Of a stretch of DNA of 64,000 nucleotides, positions 22,502 through 62,168 are shown piece by piece. Position numbers and translations under genes: made by a program. Source of the stretch: Minisyncoccota bacterium. Lineage in GTDB: Bacteria > Patescibacteriota > Minisyncoccia > UBA6257 > 1-14-0-10-44-23. The stretch spans positions 34,921 through 98,920 of the forward strand of contig JAWKSL010000001.1 in assembly GCA_041389085.1 (NCBI GenBank). Direction: 5' to 3'. Numbering within the stretch: position 1 is the stretch's first letter; each line of letters opens with the position of its first letter. The notes under the pieces are model-generated. The model saw nothing but the letters and a program-made list of their open reading frames with translations, did no database searches and was not told where the DNA came from.

Positions 22502-23665
22502 CTACTGAGTTGTGGAGAGGTGCATTTGGTTCACGCTTGGAAGTGAGGCAATGTCGTCTTCAAATATAAAGCGATATTGGTCAAACCCTGAGAAAAGAAT
22601 TGTAAGAATGATAATTGCTCCAAAAATAGTTCCCCAGAAGTAGGATATTCCACCGAAAAACTTTCGCTTTAAACTGCGGAATACCGCCCAAAGAATTAGG
22701 AGATAGAGGGTGATGTGTAGCGCAAGCAATGCAAGGAAGTAAAATACTGGCATTTTAATGATTGGCATAAAAAGTAGGTCTGCACTGCCAATCGTTAGGT
22801 AGAGAATGTATGTTACAAAGATTGACACGAGGAATGCGACAAAGATCGGCACGGCAAAATACAGAAGTGCTTTCTTTGATAGACCGCTACTGCCCCTTCC
22901 AATCAAGCTGCGCGTTTCTTTTATTGCCTCTTTATAGTTTCTTGGACGTGTGTGTGGGTGGCGTCTATTTTCAACAATAAAGGCGATTATTGCTCCCGCG
23001 ATAAACGCTACGAGCGTACCAAGCCAAGAAAGCAGAACTCCTGAGGCGCTTAGCCCTCTTGGGCCGGCAACTTGATCTGTGTATTCTGCAGAGGTCATAA
23101 GGAGCGGTCGCACTTCTGTTGGCACACAATCAATTCCCACACAGTCTTCGCGCGGCTCAATAGTAAGTGAAACTCCTTTTAGCCCGGACAGTACGTTTGT
23201 AGCGCTTCCGTCGTGTGCTAGAACCTCACCACTTGCAAGCTCAAACTTTGCCTCTCCTGCTTGAAGCGCTCGAAATGTAGCAGAAAAGATGTGGCCGCTT
23301 GCTGCTCTAAACCCTCCATCCTTCAAGAGGATACCTTCAAAGGTTATAAGGCTTGTTGCCGGGTCGTACTCTGGCTCTTTTATCCAAAAAGAAACTGCTG
23401 AATCCTCCAGGTCTGTTGTAACGAAATCGAAGTGCTCAAACGGCACAAAGACTGACCCAGAGATGGCATTTATAGCGGTGAAGTTTTCTTTTAGCTGAAC
23501 CCCTACTTTAATAATCTGACCCTCTTTAAGGTTTGAGACCCTTGACTCAAGAGAAATAATCGCTGCATCGGTAGGCTGAGGAGCGAGAAGCACCGTAACG
23601 GCGGCGATAAGTAGGACGGTCTTAGCGAATATCTTTTTTATGTCTGAAGAGTACACGATAGGCAA
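22502..23665 (-). CDS. Polytopic membrane protein with an N-terminal signal peptide and a cohesin-like extracellular beta-sandwich domain
   Basis: Signal peptide, extracellular domain paralogous to the neighbouring 283-aa protein, then multiple TM helices. TTG/GTG start. Confidence 0.5.
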   Translation of the reverse strand: MPIVYSSDIKKIFAKTVLLIAAVTVLLAPQPTDAAIISLESRVSNLKEGQIIKVGVQLKENFTAINAISGSVFVPFEHFDFVTTDLEDSAVSFWIKEPEYDPATSLITFEGILLKDGGFRAASGHIFSATFRALQAGEAKFELASGEVLAHDGSATNVLSGLKGVSLTIEPREDCVGIDCVPTEVRPLLMTSAEYTDQVAGPRGLSASGVLLSWLGTLVAFIAGAIIAFIVENRRHPHTRPRNYKEAIKETRSLIGRGSSGLSKKALLYFAVPIFVAFLVSIFVTYILYLTIGSADLLFMPIIKMPVFYFLALLALHITLYLLILWAVFRSLKRKFFGGISYFWGTIFGAIIILTILFSGFDQYRFIFEDDIASLPSVNQMHLSTTQ

Positions 23666-24473
23666 GTGTGGTTACTGCTAATACTGCTAGTGCGACTGCC
23701 AGCCATACATAAATAAATCCGTGCTTGCTGAGAGTAAAGACTGCTGAGTTCCCTGCTACGTCAAACACTCTCGCTTGGTATGGAGGCTCGCTACCCTTCA
23801 TTATATAAGGGTTTTGAGCTTTTTTCCACCCTGACCAGGGCCATTTTTTTATCTGGAAGCCTGCTATACCCGACTGTCTGTCTTCTGCATACAAGAATAA
23901 AAGTGACTCACCTTGCTGCTGAGTGTTTTCTACAATTTCAAATTGTAGCTCCCTTGGTGGAGTTGTGTCTTTTGGTTTTTCAAAATAGTCACCGCTTCCC
24001 GCGTTGATACTAATTTTTTCCTGGAGAGAAACAAGTGTTCCTTCGCCGTCGCTCTTTGCCACCTGAGAGCCTTCGAGCACGGTGGCTACAACATCTCCCT
24101 TGCTTTTACCGACTACTGTAAACAAATAGCCATTCATCTGCATAAGGCTTTGCTGGGCATAGCTCTGAGAGTTGTAGCCGCCAGGAATAATGCCCGCGAG
24201 CGAAACTGTGCCCTCCTTCACTAAAGGAGCTTGTATCCATGTAGGAATAATGCTTTCTCCGTATGAGATGCTTTCTACTTCTATGTTTACGAGCCCTATT
24301 TTGAGCTCAGCAGCGTTTATTTCTTCCGACTGAGTATCTATGAAGAAGCTTAGCTCTGTGCGATCTCCCTGAGAAGTTTTCAGGTTTTTTGCTTTCGCAA
24401 AAATTGAAGCTGCGCTTGCTTGATGCGCTATGAGAAGAAAAGCTACGGCGATGAGAGAAATTGTTCGTTTCAT
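23622..24473 (-). CDS. Secreted C-terminally TM-anchored protein with a cohesin-like domain
   Basis: Signal peptide (..HQASA), beta-sandwich with cohesin-like alternating hydrophobic pattern (ELSFFIDTQSEEINAAELKIGLVNIEVESISYG), C-terminal TM. Confidence 0.5.
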   Translation of the reverse strand: MKRTISLIAVAFLLIAHQASAASIFAKAKNLKTSQGDRTELSFFIDTQSEEINAAELKIGLVNIEVESISYGESIIPTWIQAPLVKEGTVSLAGIIPGGYNSQSYAQQSLMQMNGYLFTVVGKSKGDVVATVLEGSQVAKSDGEGTLVSLQEKISINAGSGDYFEKPKDTTPPRELQFEIVENTQQQGESLLFLYAEDRQSGIAGFQIKKWPWSGWKKAQNPYIMKGSEPPYQARVFDVAGNSAVFTLSKHGFIYVWLAVALAVLAVTTLAYRVLFRHKKDIR

Positions 24474-24474
24474 A

Positions 24475-25326
24475 CTATCCTGTCCAGTAGTAAGCCAAAA
24501 TACTAAAATCTCGTAGAGTAATTCTGCCGTCTCCGCTCAGAATTCCAAGCTCTGCTTGGCGAATAGTTTCTGGAAAGTCTAATCTATTCATCCAATATAC
24601 AAGAATGGAGAAGTCTTTCAGATTTACCCTATTGTCGCTGTTTAAGTCTCCTCTTGTCTGGCTGGTCATTTTTGAAGCATCGACATCGCTTATCACTGCC
24701 TGGCTCGACTGGGAGTTTTCAACTGGAAAGCTTTGATTGAGTGACCTTAAATTTCCTGTGCTGGCGTTGATAGTGTAGGTATAAATTCCAAGTGGTTGAC
24801 TGGCTACAATGATTTGAAAGCTTCCCGCTTCGTCGGCTTGCGCGGTTGCAACAATAAGACCGTTCCGAAGAATAGTTACTGTGGCGTTTGGCAAAGTTTG
24901 CCCACTAAACTCAACTGAGCTATTTGCGTCGCTTGGGATATTTTGTCCAGGTTGTGCGACTTGGCTCGATCCTGTGCCACCGTAACTACCAGAAACTGCT
25001 CCTGTTGATTCTTGTGTTGCATTAACCTCGCTGTCATCTGAGCTTGATTCACAGCCAGGATCGGCTGGATAGTCGGTAAGCCCATCGCCGTCATTATCTA
25101 TACCGTCTTCACAGAGACTGAGCGGAGGAGCTTCGCTATCGTCGGTTGCTGAATCGCAATCTGCGTCGCTGGGATAGTCGGTAAAACCATCAGCATCGTT
25201 ATCGCTTCCATCTGAGCACTCAAAAACAGCGACTGTAACGCTTACGCTGACTGTTGCTGCAAGAGCCCGCCCGGCAAGGAAGGTAAGGAATAGTGCGAGA
25301 ACTAGAGTCCATTTACTCTTTGCCAC
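24475..25326 (-). CDS. Secreted protein with two Cys-bracketed acidic repeats (TSP3-like) and a C-terminal type-I dockerin-like domain
   Basis: CSDGSDNDADGFTDYPSDADC and CEDGIDNDGDGLTDYPADPGC repeats. Dockerin duplicated segments GDLNSDNRVNLKDFSILVYWM and ILSGDGRITLRDFSILAYYW. Confidence 0.6.
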   Translation of the reverse strand: MAKSKWTLVLALFLTFLAGRALAATVSVSVTVAVFECSDGSDNDADGFTDYPSDADCDSATDDSEAPPLSLCEDGIDNDGDGLTDYPADPGCESSSDDSEVNATQESTGAVSGSYGGTGSSQVAQPGQNIPSDANSSVEFSGQTLPNATVTILRNGLIVATAQADEAGSFQIIVASQPLGIYTYTINASTGNLRSLNQSFPVENSQSSQAVISDVDASKMTSQTRGDLNSDNRVNLKDFSILVYWMNRLDFPETIRQAELGILSGDGRITLRDFSILAYYWTG

Positions 25327-25330
25327 ACGA

Positions 25331-26212
25331 CTATCGTCTTTTTCTTCGCTTAAGTTTTAGGAAGGCAAACACAATAACTATAAGCCCTAAAAGACTAGCT
25401 CCTACAGATAGATAGGTTTTATTTTTTTCAAAAAATGTCTTCTCGAGCACATTGAAGACTGTGCGCTGCTCGGCTACAACATCGTTTCCCTCAAAAACTT
25501 TTACATGCCCCCAATACTCACCAACTCCAAGCTTAACGTCTATCGGGAAAAGCATATCAATAGCTTCTTCGCTAAATGCTGGAATTCTTTTTACGTCATC
25601 TATCGACGTGTATGCAAGGCGAACGTCGCCAAACTTACTAAAGAGCTCAAAAGTAACAGCGTCTGGCCCACCTGGTACGTTTCCTGTGTTTTCTACCAGA
25701 ATTCGTGCATGCGGGAAATCGTTTTCTTTCACCGAAAGGAGGTCTATCTTCTTAACTTCGTAGCTAGAAAAAACATCATCTCCTACGGTAAGTTCGAGGC
25801 GAATGTTTGCTCCAAGAGCAATGGAAACTTGGCCATTTTCCGTTGCCGCTTCTGGAATAGTGGTAACGTTTAGCTGCCCTTCGTAAATACCAAGATCTGC
25901 ATCATCTGGGATTTTGATCTTTACTTTTAGTGGGAACTGCTGAGCTCCTGCAGGAATAGTAAACTTCTCCCCTTGAGTAACGCTAAGCCAGCCCTCGATC
26001 TCTTTTGGCACGTCGAAAATTGCTTGCACTGGCAGCGGTTTATCTGTATTACCCTGTACAAGATATACCTGCTTTTCGATGGTGATACCTGGTACGAGCC
26101 TATCTTCTTTTATCAGGGGAGGAGAAACTCCAAAACCCGCTTTAGCGCTCTGTGGAAGTAATACCGCCAGTGCGAGCAAGATTGTTGGGAAAAGCTTAAT
26201 ATAGGCCTTCAT
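25331..26212 (-). CDS. Cell-surface protein with signal peptide, two beta-domains, C-terminal TM anchor and basic tail
   Basis: Signal peptide begins at the ATG at 26212 (MKAYIKLFPTILLALAVLL..). The ORF-track GTG at 26242 is a likely extension. Confidence 0.5.
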   Translation of the reverse strand: MKAYIKLFPTILLALAVLLPQSAKAGFGVSPPLIKEDRLVPGITIEKQVYLVQGNTDKPLPVQAIFDVPKEIEGWLSVTQGEKFTIPAGAQQFPLKVKIKIPDDADLGIYEGQLNVTTIPEAATENGQVSIALGANIRLELTVGDDVFSSYEVKKIDLLSVKENDFPHARILVENTGNVPGGPDAVTFELFSKFGDVRLAYTSIDDVKRIPAFSEEAIDMLFPIDVKLGVGEYWGHVKVFEGNDVVAEQRTVFNVLEKTFFEKNKTYLSVGASLLGLIVIVFAFLKLKRRKRR

Positions 26213-26228
26213 TGTGTGCTTAATGCTA

Positions 26229-27185
26229 TCAGTATTCCTCACGGATGGGAAGCTTACTTACTACTGGGCAGTTCCTGCTAGTAATAGTGTTTGTTCCGGT
26301 ATAGGTTCCTGCTGCAGTTGCCGGTGGTACTCCAAGTCCCCACGAAATTGTATCTGTTGTTGTCGGGTTTCCGTCGTTTGTCGGTTGAGGAAGGGTAATG
26401 TTGATGTAGGTTGGCGTTGTAGAAAGGTCGGTTCCTGCGCTGTAAACGAAGGGATCAGCATCGTACTCCTGGTTTCCTACGGTAAGAGTATCTCCACCGC
26501 TTGTCATGTTAGTACCTGAAAGCTGTGGGTCCATATCTACGTTCCCTGTGTTGGTAACAGTAGTTGTAGAGTTTTGATCTGCAGAGTCTGATCCTGCAGC
26601 GAGTGTTCCATAGGCTATGGAAGCGGTAACGTCGAGTGCCTGCAGGGTGTTAATTTCGGTGGTTCCGGTGCTGTCTGTTGATGTTGCAGTACCATCTCCT
26701 GCTTTGAGAGTTGCTACCCAGTTTTGTGCGCTAAATGAACCAGTGTCGGTAGGGTCTGCATAGTACTGAATTGGTACTCCGCACCCATAAGCTGCTGAAG
26801 TGTCTGAGCCACCGTCGCAGGTGTTTGAGTCGAGCACAACACAGGTTACTTGCGCGTAGCAATTGTTGTTGTCTGACTCTCCGCTCGTGTCGCAACCCGT
26901 TGCAGTTATACCTGAGCGATAAAAGTCGAGCGTAACAGCAAAAATCTCACCACAGCCGTTTGTGTCGGTAACGGTAAGCGTGGTTGTGGCTACGGTAATA
27001 ATCCCCTCTGTTAGGGTAATGTTGCTTCCACTGTTTACTGAAACGCTAGAAATAGATGGAGTGGCGTTTCCGACAGTAACTGAGGTGCTTACTGAGTCTG
27101 CTGATACTAAGGTTGCTGAGAAAATCATGACTGCTGAAATGACAACTGCCAGCAGAATGTTCTTCGTAGTACTTGAAATGCTCAT
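26229..27185 (-). CDS. Secreted Thr/Ser/Gly-rich Cys-containing protein, paralogous to the C-terminal 300 aa of the 765-aa protein
   Basis: Signal peptide begins at the ATG at 27185 (MSISSTTKNILLAVVISAV..). C-terminal about 100 aa nearly identical to the C-terminus of 27260..29557. Confidence 0.55.
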   Translation of the reverse strand: MSISSTTKNILLAVVISAVMIFSATLVSADSVSTSVTVGNATPSISSVSVNSGSNITLTEGIITVATTTLTVTDTNGCGEIFAVTLDFYRSGITATGCDTSGESDNNNCYAQVTCVVLDSNTCDGGSDTSAAYGCGVPIQYYADPTDTGSFSAQNWVATLKAGDGTATSTDSTGTTEINTLQALDVTASIAYGTLAAGSDSADQNSTTTVTNTGNVDMDPQLSGTNMTSGGDTLTVGNQEYDADPFVYSAGTDLSTTPTYINITLPQPTNDGNPTTTDTISWGLGVPPATAAGTYTGTNTITSRNCPVVSKLPIREEY

Positions 27186-27259
27186 ATTTATTTTTTTATG
27201 TGTTGTTGTAGGTAATTTTACCCCAAACTCGAATTTAAGCCTCTTTTTTTTGTGGAAAA

Positions 27260-29557
27260 CTACTGCCCCGCTCCTGCAGTAATAGTGTTTGTTCCGGTAT
27301 AGGTTCCTGCTGCAGTTGCCGGTGGTACTCCAAGGCCCCATGAAATGGTGTCGGTGGTTGTCGGGTTTCCGTCGTTTGTCGGTTGAGGAAGGGTAATGTC
27401 GAGTGCGGCACTAAGACCAGATAAGCTCGTGCCTGCTCCATAAGTAAATGCGTCTGCAGCATACTCTATGTTTGATGCTGAAATTGAGTTTGCGCCGCTT
27501 GTCATGTTAGTACCTGAAAGAAGTGGGTCCATGTCTACGTTTCCAGTGTTGGTAATAGTTGTTGTACTATTTGAACCGCCCGTATCGTTTCCTGGGTCGA
27601 TAGTGCCAAAGTCGATGGTGCTTTCCGTAATTTCTAAGGCAAGAAGTGAAGCCATTTCAATAGTGTCGCTACTTGTTGTTCCTGCACCATCGCCGTCGCT
27701 TGGCGTTAGCGTACATGTCCAGGTATCGCTTGCATTTGGCGAGCCTGCATCGGTAGCGTCTGCATAGTAGTAGACCGGGATAGTGCACGTATACGTTTCG
27801 CTATTCCCTGACCCACCTGATGGGACGCACTCGCTATCGCCCGATTCTTGATAGTGGCTATTGTTGTCGAGCCCTGAACCAATTCCTACTGATGTTCTAA
27901 ATAAGTCTGCCTTCACTGAGTCTATGTCTGCATAACCATCCGCATCCGTTACCGTGCCGGCGCAGACTACGTTTTTTGTTGTTCCTTCGGTAAGGGTTAT
28001 CGACGATGCATCTGAGTCTATCGAAATTGCACTTGCGATTGGCGCTGTGTTTCCACTCGATGTAGCAAAGGTTGCAACGTTGATGGCGAAGAAGCCTACT
28101 GTATTTGCTTGTGTTCGATCTGTCCCTCCACCCTCTGTTCCTGTAATCGGATTCATATCAAGACCGATGTCGTGGCCGTCAGTAGCTACAAAATATATAG
28201 CTCCTGGGTGGAAGCTTCCTGCAAATGTGTCTTGACTTCCCTGGTTTCCGCGCGTGTAGGCACCGTGTCTGCCGAGCGTTTGCTGAGTGCCATTTACGGT
28301 GATCGATCCGTACGCGGTCAATCGCTGCCCAGCACTTACGTTGTTTCGTGCTGTCCATACGTTTGCCCAAGCTAAAACATCGGTTGAGTTTACAACATTC
28401 ATCGCTGAGTTGCTTGCTTTTGTAAAACTTTCAGAGTCGTTAAATTCTACGTCGCGCATAGCGTTCAGCGTTACCGCGCTGGTGATATTTTGGAGCCCTG
28501 TTGAGTCGTGTGACTTAAACACTTCTACGTTGTCTGGTAGCTCTAGCACCACTATTTGACCATTCCCATCAAGGTCAAACGATCCGTCTACATCTGCACC
28601 TCCTTGGTCTGCAGATACACCCGGACCTCTAAATACCTCTACCTGAATGTCGATGTCCGATGTGCTTGTTTCGATAAGATCCATAGAGCCGATACCGCAG
28701 TACTCGTTTGCACTGCTTCTCTGATAGCAGTATGAGCGCGTTGATAGTGCGTCTGTGCCTCCATACTCAAGGTGCCCAATTCTTTGAGTTCTTGAACCCC
28801 CTGTATCTCCTGATATTCCCCAGGCAATAAGGTAGCGCTTATTATCTCCCTTTACGGTTACAGTGTCTGCTGAGGTGTTTACTTCTATAGCGCTGGAGTT
28901 TGATTGCACAACAGTTCCTGTGAGGTCCATTGTATTTGGAGTTGTGCCTCCTGCTGCTCCACTTGTCGCTCCGTAGTTATATATACCCCAGTTTTCTGGG
29001 TTTATTCTTACAATCTGAAGGTTTGATAAGCCAGCAACACTTCCTCCTGTAGCTTCGTCTGTGTCTCGCCTTGTTTGTATTTCTACTCGCGAGTTTGCGG
29101 TTGCACCAATAATGACCCCGACAGCTCGGCTCCAGTACTCATCTTCTGAGTTGTCGCGAGAATATCCGGTCATATAGGTTGTAAATACTGATCCGCTTCC
29201 TGAGGTTTGTACCACTTTTGACTGAATGTTGTTTCTTCCGTTTGAAGTATCGTTTCCTCGTGTTGTAGCCAAAATAAGATAGCTTCCTGCTTCATCGAGC
29301 TCAATTGTTGAGCTGCTTATTTGCGTATAGATGCCGTCGTTTCGAATTTCAGTATCGTATTCGTACGCGGCAAAGCTTGTACCCGCAGTCTGGCTTCCCG
29401 TTTGGTCTTGCCAGTGCCCAATGTCTCCGACAGCTGCCTCTACACTCTCAGGTCTAGGAGGAAAATTAAGGTCGCCCCAAACTTGAGGCCATCCTGCAAA
29501 AATCCAAGCAAGAACCAGGGCGAATATCGCTATGTTTCTTCCGAGCCTTAATTTCAT
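27260..29557 (-). CDS. Large secreted Ser/Thr/Gly-rich surface protein (765 aa)
   Basis: N-terminal signal peptide, low-complexity T/S/G-rich composition, paired Cys. Shares a C-terminal module with the downstream gene. Confidence 0.6.
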   Translation of the reverse strand: MKLRLGRNIAIFALVLAWIFAGWPQVWGDLNFPPRPESVEAAVGDIGHWQDQTGSQTAGTSFAAYEYDTEIRNDGIYTQISSSTIELDEAGSYLILATTRGNDTSNGRNNIQSKVVQTSGSGSVFTTYMTGYSRDNSEDEYWSRAVGVIIGATANSRVEIQTRRDTDEATGGSVAGLSNLQIVRINPENWGIYNYGATSGAAGGTTPNTMDLTGTVVQSNSSAIEVNTSADTVTVKGDNKRYLIAWGISGDTGGSRTQRIGHLEYGGTDALSTRSYCYQRSSANEYCGIGSMDLIETSTSDIDIQVEVFRGPGVSADQGGADVDGSFDLDGNGQIVVLELPDNVEVFKSHDSTGLQNITSAVTLNAMRDVEFNDSESFTKASNSAMNVVNSTDVLAWANVWTARNNVSAGQRLTAYGSITVNGTQQTLGRHGAYTRGNQGSQDTFAGSFHPGAIYFVATDGHDIGLDMNPITGTEGGGTDRTQANTVGFFAINVATFATSSGNTAPIASAISIDSDASSITLTEGTTKNVVCAGTVTDADGYADIDSVKADLFRTSVGIGSGLDNNSHYQESGDSECVPSGGSGNSETYTCTIPVYYYADATDAGSPNASDTWTCTLTPSDGDGAGTTSSDTIEMASLLALEITESTIDFGTIDPGNDTGGSNSTTTITNTGNVDMDPLLSGTNMTSGANSISASNIEYAADAFTYGAGTSLSGLSAALDITLPQPTNDGNPTTTDTISWGLGVPPATAAGTYTGTNTITAGAGQ

Positions 29558-29659: not shown

Positions 29660-29733
29660 TGCCCGGTGGTGTAATGGCAGCACGTCTGGTTTTGGTCCAG
29701 GAGATTGGGGTTCGATTCCCTGCCGGGCAACCG
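29660..29733 (+). tRNA. tRNA-Gln (anticodon UUG)
   Basis: Cloverleaf folded by hand: acceptor tgcccgg/ccgggca, U8, D-arm gtgt/gcac with GG, anticodon stem tctgg/ccagg with loop ttTTGgt, T-arm tgggg-ttcgatt-ccctg, discriminator A. Confidence 0.8.
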
Positions 29734-38894: not shown

Positions 38895-38932
38895 GTATTG
38901 GCTTTTTAGGCTATTTTTGCTATATTCCCTCT

Positions 38933-39270
38933 TAGTAGCAGGGCAACTACTCTAGATTGTTTACATTCTAGGGAGGAAAGTCCGGACTCCCTTTCCCCTT
39001 TCGGGGTCAAAAATGTAGTAGCTAACAGCTATCACAGGTGACTGAGAGATGCGAGCAGAGACGCTGGCGCAGAAATGCTGCCAGGACCCTTATCTCAAGC
39101 TAAACGGGTCAATCCAGCCATAGAGACAAGAAAGCTGGGGTGAAACGGCTAAATTCTTACAGGGTGCAAGGCCGTGTCCCGCTTTGCGGGAAGTGCCGCT
39201 TGAGGGCTGTGGCGACACAGCTCCTAGGTAAATTGTTGCCAAGAACAGAATCCGGCTTACTCGCTACTAA
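38933..39270 (+). ncRNA. rnpB: RNase P RNA (bacterial type A)
   Basis: P4 halves GAGGAAAGUCCGG (38974-38986) and ACAGAAUCCGGCUUAC (39244-39259). P1 pairing AGUAGC../..GCUACU. Followed by a terminator. Confidence 0.85.
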
Positions 39271-39273
39271 CTA

Positions 39274-39297
39274 AAAAGCCCCTTTCGGGGTTTTTTA
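39274..39297. terminator. Bidirectional terminator aaaaagcccctttcggggtttttt
   Basis: Read directly. Serves rnpB (+) and the DHH gene (-). Confidence 0.8.
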
Positions 39298-60334: not shown

Positions 60335-60892
60335 ATGGACCCAATTCAAACTCAGCAAGGGCCAGTACAACCTGCTGCCCCTTTGCAAGCTGCTCCGAGC
60401 GCACCAATGCCTGTAGCAGAATCTGCTCCGCATAAGCGCGGAGGGCATATCGTTCTCTTTATAATTATTTTTATACTTGGCATTGTGCTCGGTGGCTTCC
60501 TTGGCTACCTCTGGCGAGGCATGAAAATAGACGAAAGCCTTATTTATGATCAGGCAGCTCTGGAGAGTGCTGCTGCGGAGGCTCACTCTCGTGTTCTCTC
60601 TGAGATTGAAGCAGAAAAATCCGCTGCTTTAAAAAGTGCAATTGGGGAGGTCCTCAGTGTTGAAGCGACCAGTATTCGTATACGGTTTTCTCGAGAAGGG
60701 ATTGGGGAAGATTTGCTACTACTTACCGATGAGAATACAAAATTTTCTTCTTTTGATAACTCAACAGATATCCCAACTCCGGTTGAAATAACTGCTGCAG
60801 ATATAGTGGTGGGAGATACAGTAACTGCCAACTTTAATGAAAGTGTCGAACAAAACCTAGAACTATACGCATATGAAATCATTAAGATATAA
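60335..60892 (+). CDS. Single-pass membrane protein with Pro/Ala/Gln-rich N-terminus, hypothetical
   Basis: One TM (IVLFIIIFILGIVLGGFLGYLW). No motif. Confidence 0.45.
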   Translation: MDPIQTQQGPVQPAAPLQAAPSAPMPVAESAPHKRGGHIVLFIIIFILGIVLGGFLGYLWRGMKIDESLIYDQAALESAAAEAHSRVLSEIEAEKSAALKSAIGEVLSVEATSIRIRFSREGIGEDLLLLTDENTKFSSFDNSTDIPTPVEITAADIVVGDTVTANFNESVEQNLELYAYEIIKI

Positions 60893-62168
60893 AAAGAAAA
60901 AGCAGCACCCACTCGCTGTAGCGCTCTGCCTACTCTTTCTTTCCTTTGCAGCCTTCGTTGTAGTTAAAAACGCTTCAGCAGTAGAGCTCAATGGTCAGGC
61001 AGACTTTCGCCTTTCCATTCAACTTAACGATAAAACCTGTGGTCAGCAAAATGGCACTCCGCGATCTGCTGGATTTTTAAGTCAAGGAGCCGGATATGCT
61101 CAATCGGATTGGGCGACTGACTCAAATGGTTTTGATCCTGACTGTGCTCGTCTAGGCCTTGAATCTCAAGGTGGAAACACTGTTCCGACTACCGACTTTC
61201 GGGTATGTATACAAGTAAGTGATGATATTGCTTATAGCTTTATGAGCCAAAGAGTAGTTAATGTGAACCAAGTCGGTATTGAGCGTTGCACCCCATATGT
61301 TAGTGAGGGTGGTGGTTGGAGTGAGTGGGCTTACGATGGAGGTACTGGGTCCGATCGAGCATTTGATCCTGATGCTGTCCGTCTTCGAATAGAAGCTAAT
61401 AGCACTCCTTTAGAGGGTATTGAAATTGATAATATGAGATTCGGCATTCAACTCTCTGATGATCAATGTACGGGCCAGTTTGGAGCGCCGGAGTTTACTC
61501 CTTGGCTTGTAGATGTTGGGATGAATAGCGCCTCTGAGCACTGGTCAAACTGGGCAAAGGATGGGGGGCCAAACTACAAAGACCCTGACTGTGTACGCAT
61601 AAAAATGGAAGTCATCACAAACCCAGTTGGTAATAATGAGGACGAAGAGCTTCCTGACACTCCTGCATGTTCTGATGGTATAGACAACGACAGTGATGGT
61701 TCAGCTGACTATCCAAGCGATCCTGGATGCGCCAGCGCTGACGACAATAGTGAAGCTGATAATGCTCAGAATGCTTGCGAAAACGGCGAAGACGATGATG
61801 GAGATGGCCTTGTAGACATGAACGACCCTGGCTGTGCTAGCCCAAGCGATGATGACGAGACCGACCCTATTGCCTGCAACTTTGCTGCAAACCCAACTTC
61901 GCTCGTAAAAGGAATTGGTACGAGTAAACTTACCTGGGACTGCCGACACAGCGACGGAACAGTTATGACCGGTACCGTATCTATTGTTGACGACAACGCT
62001 GCGCAAACATTTGCTGGCCTTGGAAACAACCTTGGTGCAGCAGGGTCTGTAAACGTTGCTCCTGAACAGACTACACGCTTTACTCTCAGCCCATCTCTCT
62101 CAGGACTTATTCCTGAAACAGCAACGGTGCGTATAGAAAACAGTAGCTTCGATGAAGATATTCCGTAG
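60873..62168 (+). CDS. Secreted protein with three copies of a ~85-aa novel repeat followed by Cys-bracketed acidic (TSP3-like) repeats
   Basis: Signal peptide. Repeats DFRLSIQLNDKTCG.. / DFRVCIQVSDD.. / NMRFGIQLSDDQCTG... CSDGIDNDSDGSADYPSDPGC and CENGEDDDGDGLVDMNDPGC. Confidence 0.55.
   Translation: MKSLRYKKKKQHPLAVALCLLFLSFAAFVVVKNASAVELNGQADFRLSIQLNDKTCGQQNGTPRSAGFLSQGAGYAQSDWATDSNGFDPDCARLGLESQGGNTVPTTDFRVCIQVSDDIAYSFMSQRVVNVNQVGIERCTPYVSEGGGWSEWAYDGGTGSDRAFDPDAVRLRIEANSTPLEGIEIDNMRFGIQLSDDQCTGQFGAPEFTPWLVDVGMNSASEHWSNWAKDGGPNYKDPDCVRIKMEVITNPVGNNEDEELPDTPACSDGIDNDSDGSADYPSDPGCASADDNSEADNAQNACENGEDDDGDGLVDMNDPGCASPSDDDETDPIACNFAANPTSLVKGIGTSKLTWDCRHSDGTVMTGTVSIVDDNAAQTFAGLGNNLGAAGSVNVAPEQTTRFTLSPSLSGLIPETATVRIENSSFDEDIP

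Follow-up and report, generated by a model that had tools for sequence, protein, structure and literature searches.

A putative envelope operon of a Patescibacterium joins a conserved dockerin–cohesin–cohesin triad to a WxL-like module

Six adjoining genes in a 64,000-nucleotide window (the whole stretch of DNA analysed) raise the question of whether a small bacterium uses cohesin- and dockerin-like modules to build a docking system on its surface and, if so, which proteins such a system would hold. The initial annotation described six consecutive minus-strand genes for secreted or membrane-anchored proteins in a small-genome, possibly episymbiotic bacterium, and this description is borne out: the six open reading frames are present, the DNA comes from a MAG of Candidatus Paceibacterota, and a simple hydropathy scan, used here for all TM assignments in place of a dedicated predictor, places an N-terminal hydrophobic segment in 6/6 proteins, a single C-terminal TM-like segment in both G3 and G5, and five more TM-like segments beyond the N-terminal one in G6. 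From G1 to G6, the genes (all on the minus strand, as are the protein features within them) encode a large secreted protein of 765 aa (G1, 27260..29557); a small secreted protein (G2, 26229..27185, 318 aa from the internal ATG at 27185, with the longest ORF extending to 27341); a WxLIP-like protein that has two Ig-like domains as well as a signal peptide, a C-terminal TM helix and a basic tail (G3, 25331..26242); a secreted dockerin protein of 283 aa (G4, 24475..25326); a short cohesin anchor in which a cohesin module and a middle beta domain lie between the signal peptide and a C-terminal TM helix (G5, 23622..24473); and a polytopic membrane protein that carries a cohesin module (G6, 22502..23656/23665; 384 aa in the NCBI call, locus tag R3B52_00260). 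Packing is tight, with successive intergenic gaps of 71, −14, 4, 1 and −35 nt. An alternative start of G3 possibly lies at 26212. The richness in Thr, Ser and Gly ascribed to the remaining genes holds for G1 (35%) and G2 (39%) against a background of 19%, but not for G3 (17%).

G4 ends in a type-I-like dockerin (24478..24669, residues 220–283) that terminates in WTG. The duplicated calcium-loop segments from which a dockerin had been proposed were found exactly as quoted, in residues 226–283, where they make up a tandem pair of ~22-residue units, with a helix after the Ca-binding loop in either unit; they can be aligned with 38 orthologues whose sequences finish in ...DFSI..[FY].WTG. With Pfam Dockerin_1 (PF00404) the support comes at the family level: G4 itself scores 22.5 bits (E 1.3e-4), 0.4 short of the cut-off of 22.9, while its L001 orthologue passes with 31.6 bits and 35/39 orthologues match at E<=1e-3 (best 2.9e-9). 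The best matches of G4 among PDB sequences are dockerins, and it matches a profile of 80 CPR dockerins with an E-value of 1.2e-21. Canonical Ca ligands of type I dockerins are D/N at loop positions 1, 3, 5 and 9 and D at position 12. The first loop of G4, DLNSDNRVNLKD, is fully canonical in this respect; the second, ILSGDGRITLRD, is degenerate, with I, S and T rather than D, N and D at positions 1, 3 and 9, and retains only D5 and D12 among the canonical ligands. As the second loop is without Asp at position 1 and Asp/Asn at position 9, G4 may bind a single Ca2+, or bind Ca2+ weakly; both loops are canonical in the orthologues of L001, L004–L006, L021, L074 and others. The two CxDGxDNDxDGxxDYPxDxxC repeats noted previously are present at residues 37–57 and 72–92 (CSDGSDNDADGFTDYPSDADC and CEDGIDNDGDGLTDYPADPGC; together 25051..25218, residues 37–92) and match NCBIfam NF033662 acid_disulf_rpt in two stretches (48.4 bits, cut-off 41); the dockerin protein carries one copy of this acidic Cys repeat in L012 and in L015. 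Between repeats and dockerin lies an Ig-like domain (Big_6 / CarboxypepD_reg-like; 24700..24918, residues ~137–209), which in G4 is below the cut-off (E 1e-4); a Big_6 match is found in 35/39 orthologues.

The cohesin modules occupy residues 22–160 of G5 (23994..24410) and residues ~30–180 of the longest ORF of G6 (23126..23578), the latter followed by a membrane region with five TM-like segments in the hydropathy scan (22604..23056). This agrees with the earlier assignment of one cohesin to a polytopic protein and the other to a C-terminally anchored one. The two domains had also been called paralogous; both are real, but direct BLASTP between G5 and G6 detects no similarity, and their kinship emerges only by way of an intermediate orthologue (G6 module against the L001 orthologue of G5, E 5e-13) and a shared profile, which recovers 6938 relatives; the G6 module aligns with G5-type modules. 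The Pfam Cohesin model (PF00963), proposed at the outset as a check, gave a divided answer: neither G5 nor G6 matches at E<=1, but 30/81 profile relatives match at E<=1e-3 (best 1.1e-9), and the L001 orthologue of G5 falls slightly below the cut-off of 24.1, with 23.1 bits (E 9e-5). Among PDB sequences, the cohesin profile matches only cohesins. Structure prediction upheld the proposed cohesin fold, with the AF2 model of G5 residues 22–160 (pLDDT 89.7) showing a nine-stranded flattened beta-sandwich (jelly-roll) nearest to solved cohesins. The G5 and G6 modules thus belong to a divergent clade of the cohesin superfamily rather than to the core Pfam family. G5 and G6 are orthologues of the genes at positions 2 and 3 of a dockerin–cohesin–cohesin triad, as their best matches are position-2 and position-3 genes, respectively, although the C-terminal part of G6 has five TM segments instead of the single TM helix usual at position 3. 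The usual position-3 protein also has a tail that, judged by eye, looks like a coiled coil.

Genomes chosen as species representatives contain at least 567 stretches with relatives of the dockerin protein. Among the 72 related loci with at least 2 kb of downstream DNA, a cohesin gene directly follows the dockerin gene in every case (72/72; median distance 5.5 nt), with two in tandem in 68/72, and 309 kb of upstream DNA holds only 1 cohesin gene. Each locus has exactly one dockerin ORF, and no dockerin was found on the upstream proteins of related loci. The 80 best-matching loci bear the names of over a dozen candidate CPR lineages, with a mean identity of about 60% for the dockerin region, a figure inflated by the choice of loci on dockerin similarity, and of 33% for the position-2 cohesin. 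The triad operon also occurs in Ca. Microsyncoccus archaeolyticus PMX.50 (L074), enrichment cultures of which have been studied with metatranscriptomics (PMC10936435). G4–G5–G6 is a divergent copy of a highly conserved operon of Patescibacteria (Paceibacteria/Parcubacteria lineages), of which we found no published description in the literature.

The three remaining genes resemble the WxL clusters of Firmicutes, which are defined by a small and a large WxL protein together with a WxLIP (DUF916-DUF3324-TM); the WxL domain has 160–190 aa and two Trp-x-Leu motifs (Pfam PF13731), the WxL/WxLIP platform binds peptidoglycan, and nearly all reports of WxL proteins concern Lactobacillales and Bacillales (PMC10599100). 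As in those clusters, the C-terminal ~150–265 residues of the large secreted protein correspond to the small one: the C-terminal region of G1 (~265 residues; 27263..28060) is homologous to mature G2 (52% identity between G2 and G1 residues 520–761, E 7e-58), and 17/19 loci tested, this window among them, show the same correspondence. Two copies of a 125-nt direct repeat, recorded without strand at the 3' ends of G2 (26280..26404) and G1 (27278..27402), are 94% identical, and the final ~40 codons of the two genes are nearly the same, which suggests gene conversion. No recognised domain was found in the N-terminal ~480 residues of G1, which carry, just after the hydrophobic segment, the motif WIFAGWPQVW..FPP (29450..29506); the first gene of related clusters shares this motif, with the consensus W[IV]FSGWPQ[IV]WQNPPxPPE, and L021, L027, L041, L066, L074 and L080 have it in their large upstream gene.

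The likeness to WxL clusters extends to the adjoining G3, with its two Ig-like domains and C-terminal TM helix. G3 alone has no match in Pfam. Its Jackhmmer family, which it matches with an E-value of 3.7e-46, comprises 39 members from 80+ loci, nearly all encoded directly upstream of a dockerin gene; 7/35 members match Pfam WxLIP_PGBD (best 5.6e-8), and the family profile matches PDB EfmWxLIP1 over residues 28–255, covering both domains (E 2.3e-6). The WxLIP combination of PGBD, HBD and C-terminal TM is therefore present at the family level, with the C-terminal TM segment seen in G3 itself, and these profile matches indicate that the G3 family and the WxLIP (DUF916/DUF3324) of WxL clusters in Firmicutes are homologous. 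Unlike in WxL clusters, the domain shared by G1 and G2 lacks a significant match to the WxL domain: Pfam WxL (PF13731) gives no match even at E<=10, hhalign against a 9-sequence Firmicutes WxL alignment returns probabilities of 1.8% and 0.3%, and only one W-x-L motif (SWGL) is present. The AF2 model of G2 has a pLDDT of 35, too low for fold comparison. Further differences are the absence of an LPXTG protein and a sortase from the cluster, a host that is a Patescibacterium rather than a member of Lactobacillales or Bacillales, and the attached dockerin–cohesin triad, which Firmicutes WxL clusters lack. The six-gene order of large, small, WxLIP-like, dockerin, cohesin and cohesin recurs in at least 13 loci; the cluster is composed of two modules and is widespread, not peculiar to the source genome. 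The initial annotation had recognised neither this make-up and wide occurrence nor the WxLIP-like nature of G3 and the large/small pairing of G1 with G2.

We consider it reasonably probable that all six genes belong to a single operon encoding a protein complex of the cell envelope, made up of two anchoring modules. G5 and G6 would be anchored in the cytoplasmic membrane and expose their N-terminal cohesin modules on the outside, and we infer that G4, once secreted, would be kept at the surface by its C-terminal dockerin plugging into one or both of these cohesins, probably with Ca2+, the partner cohesin and the Ca dependence being likewise predicted. Such docking would display the Ig-like domain and the acidic Cys repeats of G4. 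The second module (G1–G2–G3) would follow the layout of a Firmicutes WxL cluster, with G3 as the membrane-anchored WxLIP homologue; we propose that G3 would contact and hold the domain common to G2 and the G1 C-terminus, so that the ~480-residue N-terminal region of G1 would be presented outward. The complex would serve to organise the envelope and/or to adhere to a host cell.

Functional coupling of dockerin and cohesin is suggested by their strict gene adjacency throughout the 72 related loci. With two cohesins for each single dockerin, a simple 1:1 plug is insufficient as an explanation, and the conservation of the dockerin far above that of the position-2 cohesin is unexpected for a co-evolving pair. 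An alternative to which we give some weight, while thinking it unlikely, is that the modules, beta-sandwich and EF-hand-like, have a purely structural part in envelope proteins without binding one another, the three genes being co-transcribed because their products work in the same envelope structure with other partners. An S-layer or a stalk-like assembly would be an example of such a structure. The triad is also seen with unrelated upstream genes (type B loci), so that the two modules may be functionally independent. The cluster could even comprise two neighbouring systems without a physical link, a WxL-like wall- or membrane-anchored adhesin set (G1–G3) and the dockerin–cohesin triad (G4–G6), as roughly half of the loci have unrelated upstream genes (~1600-aa and ~130-aa proteins without a common domain in type B loci; other genes again in L004) and no upstream protein carries a dockerin; but the position of the G3 family directly upstream of the dockerin gene (39 ORFs in 80+ loci), the packing of the window genes with gaps of −35 to 71 nt and the repetition of the six-gene order in at least 13 loci make this quite improbable. 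Cellulosomes are marked out by their cohesin and dockerin modules, yet a miniature cellulosome-like system for polysaccharide degradation would be very surprising here, since neither the six proteins nor the 39 dockerin-protein orthologues scanned contain any CAZyme domain, whether glycoside hydrolase, CBM or another, each locus has one dockerin ORF, and every cohesin is a lone module on a membrane anchor rather than part of a scaffoldin array. On the absence of CAZyme domains from the cluster, its original designation as non-cellulosomal stands.

The proposed surface complex can be compared with known non-cellulosomal pairs, represented by the Archaeoglobus fulgidus cohesin 2xdh and the Clostridium perfringens cohesin-like modules 2jh2/2vo8/2w1n; such pairs were reportedly surveyed by Peer et al. 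in 2009, in FEMS Microbiol Lett 291:1. It differs from them in that the Patescibacteria cohesins each have their own membrane anchor and show marginal similarity to Pfam Cohesin, the dockerin and two cohesin genes form a fixed operon across hundreds of Patescibacteria species, and the cargo is an Ig-like / Cys-repeat protein, not an enzyme or toxin. In contrast to the anchoring scaffoldins of cellulosomes (such as C. thermocellum OlpA/OlpC/SdbA, R. flavefaciens ScaE), anchoring is by TM helices instead of SLH domains or sortase, and the cluster is without a multi-cohesin scaffoldin and without enzymes.

Beyond type IV pili, little is known about how CPR/Patescibacteria build their envelope and attach to host cells. 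Given its occurrence in at least 567 stretches, its near-invariant gene order and its ~60% dockerin identity, the triad is well placed as a candidate core surface-assembly device, and it probably represents a widespread means, as yet unstudied, of fixing proteins to the cell surface. The G3 family extends WxLIP homologues well beyond Lactobacillales and Bacillales, and a compact natural membrane-anchored cohesin–dockerin pair could serve surface display. More tentatively, it is possible that the triad is a lineage-wide envelope apparatus of Paceibacteria-type Patescibacteria, in which a cohesin socket pair embedded in the membrane holds a single, highly conserved dockerin protein and a WxLIP-like adaptor couples this base to large surface proteins that vary by lineage and make contact with host cells. 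If this is true, cohesin–dockerin docking would be a core cell-biological device of ultra-small episymbionts, and the WxL/WxLIP anchoring principle would be placed outside Firmicutes.

Six consecutive ORFs occupy 22502–29557 on the minus strand: G1 (27260–29557, 765 aa), G2 (26229–27185, 318 aa counted from an internal ATG), G3 (25331–26242, 303 aa), G4 (24475–25326, 283 aa), G5 (23622–24473, 283 aa) and G6 (22502–23656, 384 aa by the NCBI gene call). As the intergenic gaps from G1 to G6 are only 71, −14, 4, 1 and −35 nt, the six genes are most simply read as a single operon; promoter and terminator scans returned background level only. By a simple hydropathy scan, each of the six proteins carries a hydrophobic segment near its N-terminus, with one additional C-terminal segment each in G3 and G5 and five additional segments in G6. 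The cluster is flanked by ordinary housekeeping genes, with a tRNA-Gln(UUG) gene (29660–29732, plus strand) directly upstream on the opposite strand, and the flanks also encode a 2OG-Fe(II) oxygenase, an NMT1-like binding protein and an ORF that, judged from its translation, is presumably DNA polymerase III gamma/tau-like. Judging by size and order, we take more distant ORFs to resemble rpoB/rpoC and a ribosomal-protein cluster, and a bacterial class A RNase P RNA (38931–39275, plus strand) barely reaches its Rfam gathering threshold (102.4 versus 100 bits). G6 shares 100% identity with a protein of a ‘Candidatus Paceibacterota bacterium’ MAG, so the initial annotation was right in guessing a small-genome CPR (Patescibacteria) organism.

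G4 comprises a signal peptide, two acidic Cys repeats (residues 37–57 and 72–92; NCBIfam NF033662, 48.4 bits, cut-off 41), an Ig-like domain (sub-threshold Big_6/CarboxypepD_reg-like match) and a C-terminal dockerin (residues 226–283). The dockerin proposed initially stands at the family level, with 35 of 39 G4 orthologues matching Dockerin_1 and Big_6, although the window protein itself falls below the Pfam Dockerin_1 cut-off (E 1.3e-4, 22.5 versus 22.9 bits). The orthologue on L001, a syntenic 4.2-kb contig, passes at 31.6 bits; the G4 dockerin also matches a profile built from 80 CPR dockerins (E 1.2e-21), and type I dockerins rank top among PDB sequences. Only the first of the two Ca loops is canonical: in the second (ILSGDGRITLRD) the ligands at positions 1 and 9 are lost, unlike in the orthologues, where this loop reads DLNGDGKVDLxD, which makes G4 a somewhat degenerate member. 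Elsewhere in the window (60873–62168, plus strand), a 431-aa secreted protein with a signal peptide carries two G4-type acidic Cys repeats (CSDGIDNDSDGSADYPSDPGC and CENGEDDDGDGLVDMNDPGC), with no Pfam match and no dockerin, and may be another surface protein with this repeat.

The cohesin-like domains claimed for two of the proteins hold in fold and profile, although G5 and G6 themselves do not reach the Pfam Cohesin gathering threshold and have no match to this family even at E ≤ 1. AlphaFold2 returned a confident all-beta model of G5 22–160 (26-sequence alignment, pLDDT 89.7, pTM 0.84) with a cohesin fold, the best 35 Foldseek matches in the PDB being cohesins throughout. Word-indexed homologue searches found no homologue with the G6 cohesin module alone, two matches with the full G6 protein and four with a small alignment, so that an exhaustive HMMER search was needed; with a 7-sequence profile of the cohesin module this retrieved 6938 cluster representatives at E ≤ 1e-3. 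Pfam Cohesin is matched by 30 of 81 sampled relatives (best 1.1e-9), and R. flavefaciens cohesins are the sole PDB sequences matching the cohesin profile at E ≤ 0.05. The model, the Foldseek result and the profile and Pfam matches of relatives therefore place the G5 and G6 modules as a divergent clade within the cohesin superfamily. Their proposed paralogy found no support in direct BLASTP, in which G5 and G6 show no significant similarity, and the link consequently needed an intermediate, but it was recovered through the L001 G5-like protein, which matches window G5 (E 1e-15), window G6 (E 5e-13) and the adjoining L001 G6-like protein (E 4e-14), and aligns to positions 4–132 of 139 of Pfam Cohesin (E 9e-5, 23.1 bits versus a cut-off of 24.1).

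Scanning a single genome for each GTDB species with a dockerin-protein alignment as query revealed at least 567 stretches encoding relatives of the G4 dockerin protein, the best 80 of which were compared as loci. Taking taxonomy from the record titles as given, these 80 are almost all Patescibacteria/CPR MAGs (Wolfe-, Nomura-, Kaiser-, Zambryski-, Portnoy-, Brenner-, Magasanik-, Sung-, Colwell-, Jorgensen-, Taylor-, Veblen- and Torokbacteria, Paceibacterota and Ca. Microsyncoccus archaeolyticus PMX.50), the other labels being ‘uncultured Gammaproteobacteria’ for five (automated), ‘Candidatus Humimicrobiaceae’ for one and plain ‘bacterium’ for several. Each locus has exactly one dockerin ORF. 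Where the downstream sequence extends for at least 2 kb (72 loci), a cohesin gene always lies directly 3′ of this ORF on the same strand (median gap 5.5 nt). A tandem pair of cohesin genes is present in 68 of the 72, with one further locus encoding a two-cohesin fusion protein. The upstream side of the dockerin genes, 309 kb in total, has only one cohesin gene.

In this triad, G5 best matches position-2 genes (~290 aa; cohesin, middle domain and TM helix) and G6 best matches position-3 genes (~400–600 aa; cohesin, often Big_13, and TM helix), whose tails, judged by eye from those inspected, look coiled-coil. The only close relative of G6, an L001 protein with 61% identity, shares with it a five-TM C-terminal part, unlike the single TM helix usual at position 3. 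Mean pairwise identity falls from 62% in the dockerin (a figure inflated by the choice of loci on dockerin similarity) to 50% in the position-3 and 33% in the position-2 cohesin; taken at face value, these values would make the position-3 cohesin (G6 type) the likelier primary partner. Many top cohesin-profile matches (P0007–P0037) are 500–1200-aa proteins with two cohesin modules and TM segments between them, as is an ORF of locus L080 (6746–9409). These look like fusions of the position-2 and position-3 genes, or merged gene calls, and as fusions they tie the two cohesin proteins together again.

About half of the loci have gene types other than G1–G3 before the triad, which is thus a constant core with exchangeable upstream genes. 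One alternative type (L010, L028, L030, L035, L045, L053, L057, L073, L086 and others) consists of a ~700–1650-aa secreted protein and, immediately ahead of the dockerin gene, a membrane-anchored protein of ~130 aa, the two having no common domain; a Thr-rich protein of ~300 aa marks a third type.

The description of the remaining genes of the cluster as Thr/Ser/Gly-rich fits G1 (35%) and G2 (39%) but not G3 (17%, against a background of 19%). Across the fetched loci the G3 family numbers 39 ORFs, almost all of which immediately precede the dockerin gene; window G3 belongs to it at E 3.7e-46. Pfam WxLIP_PGBD (formerly DUF916) matches 7 of 35 family members (best 5.6e-8), and the family profile matches the structurally solved Enterococcus faecium EfmWxLIP1 (9i25, 9i1y; E 2.3e-6) across both Ig-like domains, making G3 a WxLIP homologue at the family level. 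WxLIP is the DUF916-DUF3324-TM protein of Firmicutes WxL clusters, whose other usual members are a small WxL protein and a large one that ends in a WxL domain; reports of WxL proteins come almost exclusively from Lactobacillales and Bacillales (PMC10599100). Three G3-family proteins (L059 2623–3762, L011 2149–3303 and L018 163–1326) carry a LysM domain (Pfam LysM, best 8.4e-10) after the C-terminal TM helix, an odd site for a module that binds peptidoglycan, should the N-terminus be extracellular. An unannotated stretch of plasmid CP069367.1 (labelled Klebsiella pneumoniae; 101776–102459) has 73% identity to E. faecium WxLIP1, which is unexpected there; the record may be mislabelled or contain a transferred Enterococcus segment.

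Mature G2 aligns with G1 520–761 (52% identity, E 7e-58), and the small upstream protein matches the C-terminal ~100–265 residues of the adjoining large one in 17 of the 19 loci compared, a set that includes the locus of the window. G1–G3 thus resemble a Firmicutes WxL cluster in layout (large and small proteins with a common C-terminal domain plus a WxLIP homologue) and appear WxL-like in this respect; G1 and G2 themselves are no more than candidate WxL proteins. Their shared domain is unmatched by Pfam WxL, two alignments of it used as profiles against PDB sequences gave no significant match, and hhalign against a WxL alignment from Firmicutes plasmid loci gave a probability of 0.3–1.8% over short in-register stretches only. 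An AlphaFold2 model of G2 (2-sequence alignment) was unusable for fold assignment (pLDDT 35), and an SCPU identity was not adopted, the Pfam matches being weak (E 0.012–0.039) and confined to one relative. Despite overall identity of only ~52% between the proteins, the 3′ ends of G2 (26280–26404) and G1 (27278–27402) form a 125-nt direct repeat with 94% identity, a pattern that suggests gene conversion across the last ~40 codons. Near-identity over the last 40 residues is particular to the window pair; generally greater conservation of the C-terminal strand was rejected, pooled small/large pairs having 62% identity over these residues and 57% over the rest. Right after its N-terminal hydrophobic segment, G1 has a motif (29450–29506, residues 18–36), W[IV]F[SA]GWPQ[IV]W, mostly followed by QNPPxPPE, that recurs in the large genes of L021, L027, L041, L066, L074 and L080. 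This motif may serve as a dedicated signal for sorting or processing.

With the observed domain identities, predicted topology, operon packing and conserved gene order, a docking and display mechanism involving all of G1–G6 is the most likely reading, in which we have moderate confidence; we infer its protein contacts, Ca dependence and biological role. G5 and G6 would reside in the membrane with their cohesins facing outside, secreted G4 would dock via its dockerin onto G5, G6 or both, and membrane-anchored G3 would hold the common G1/G2 domain in the manner suggested for WxLIP and WxL. The complex would display the Ig and acidic-repeat region of G4 and the large N-terminal region of G1. Competing readings are that the dockerin and cohesin modules do not bind each other or that G1–G3 and G4–G6 are two independent modules. 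A cellulosome is excluded, as Pfam and NCBIfam scans found no enzyme domain in the six proteins, nor did scans of 39 G4 orthologues, which bears out the initial description of the system as non-cellulosomal.

Cohesin and dockerin modules outside cellulosomes are already known; Peer et al. (2009, cited in PMC6487960) reportedly surveyed them, and 2xdh and 2jh2 are among those with solved structures. The operon was not described in full-text literature combining cohesin/dockerin with CPR, Patescibacteria or Parcubacteria, or WxL with CPR terms, which is absence of evidence only since coverage was incomplete, and it is not mentioned in the Ca. Microsyncoccus papers or a 2026 Minisyncoccota review. 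What appears to be new is the arrangement, a three-gene operon of membrane-anchored cohesins and a dockerin that occurs widely across Patescibacteria and is frequently fused with a module of the WxLIP type. In Ca. Microsyncoccus archaeolyticus PMX.50, an archaeon-parasitising Patescibacterium studied in enrichment cultures, locus L074 (BTXY01000001.1, 3415–9253) encodes large, short WxLIP-like, dockerin, cohesin and cohesin proteins, the small-protein gene seemingly being absent, and this organism offers an entry point for experiments. The high conservation of the dockerin protein favours a core role in the envelope over that of a rapidly evolving adhesin, and the variable large upstream proteins are the better candidates for host-specific contact.
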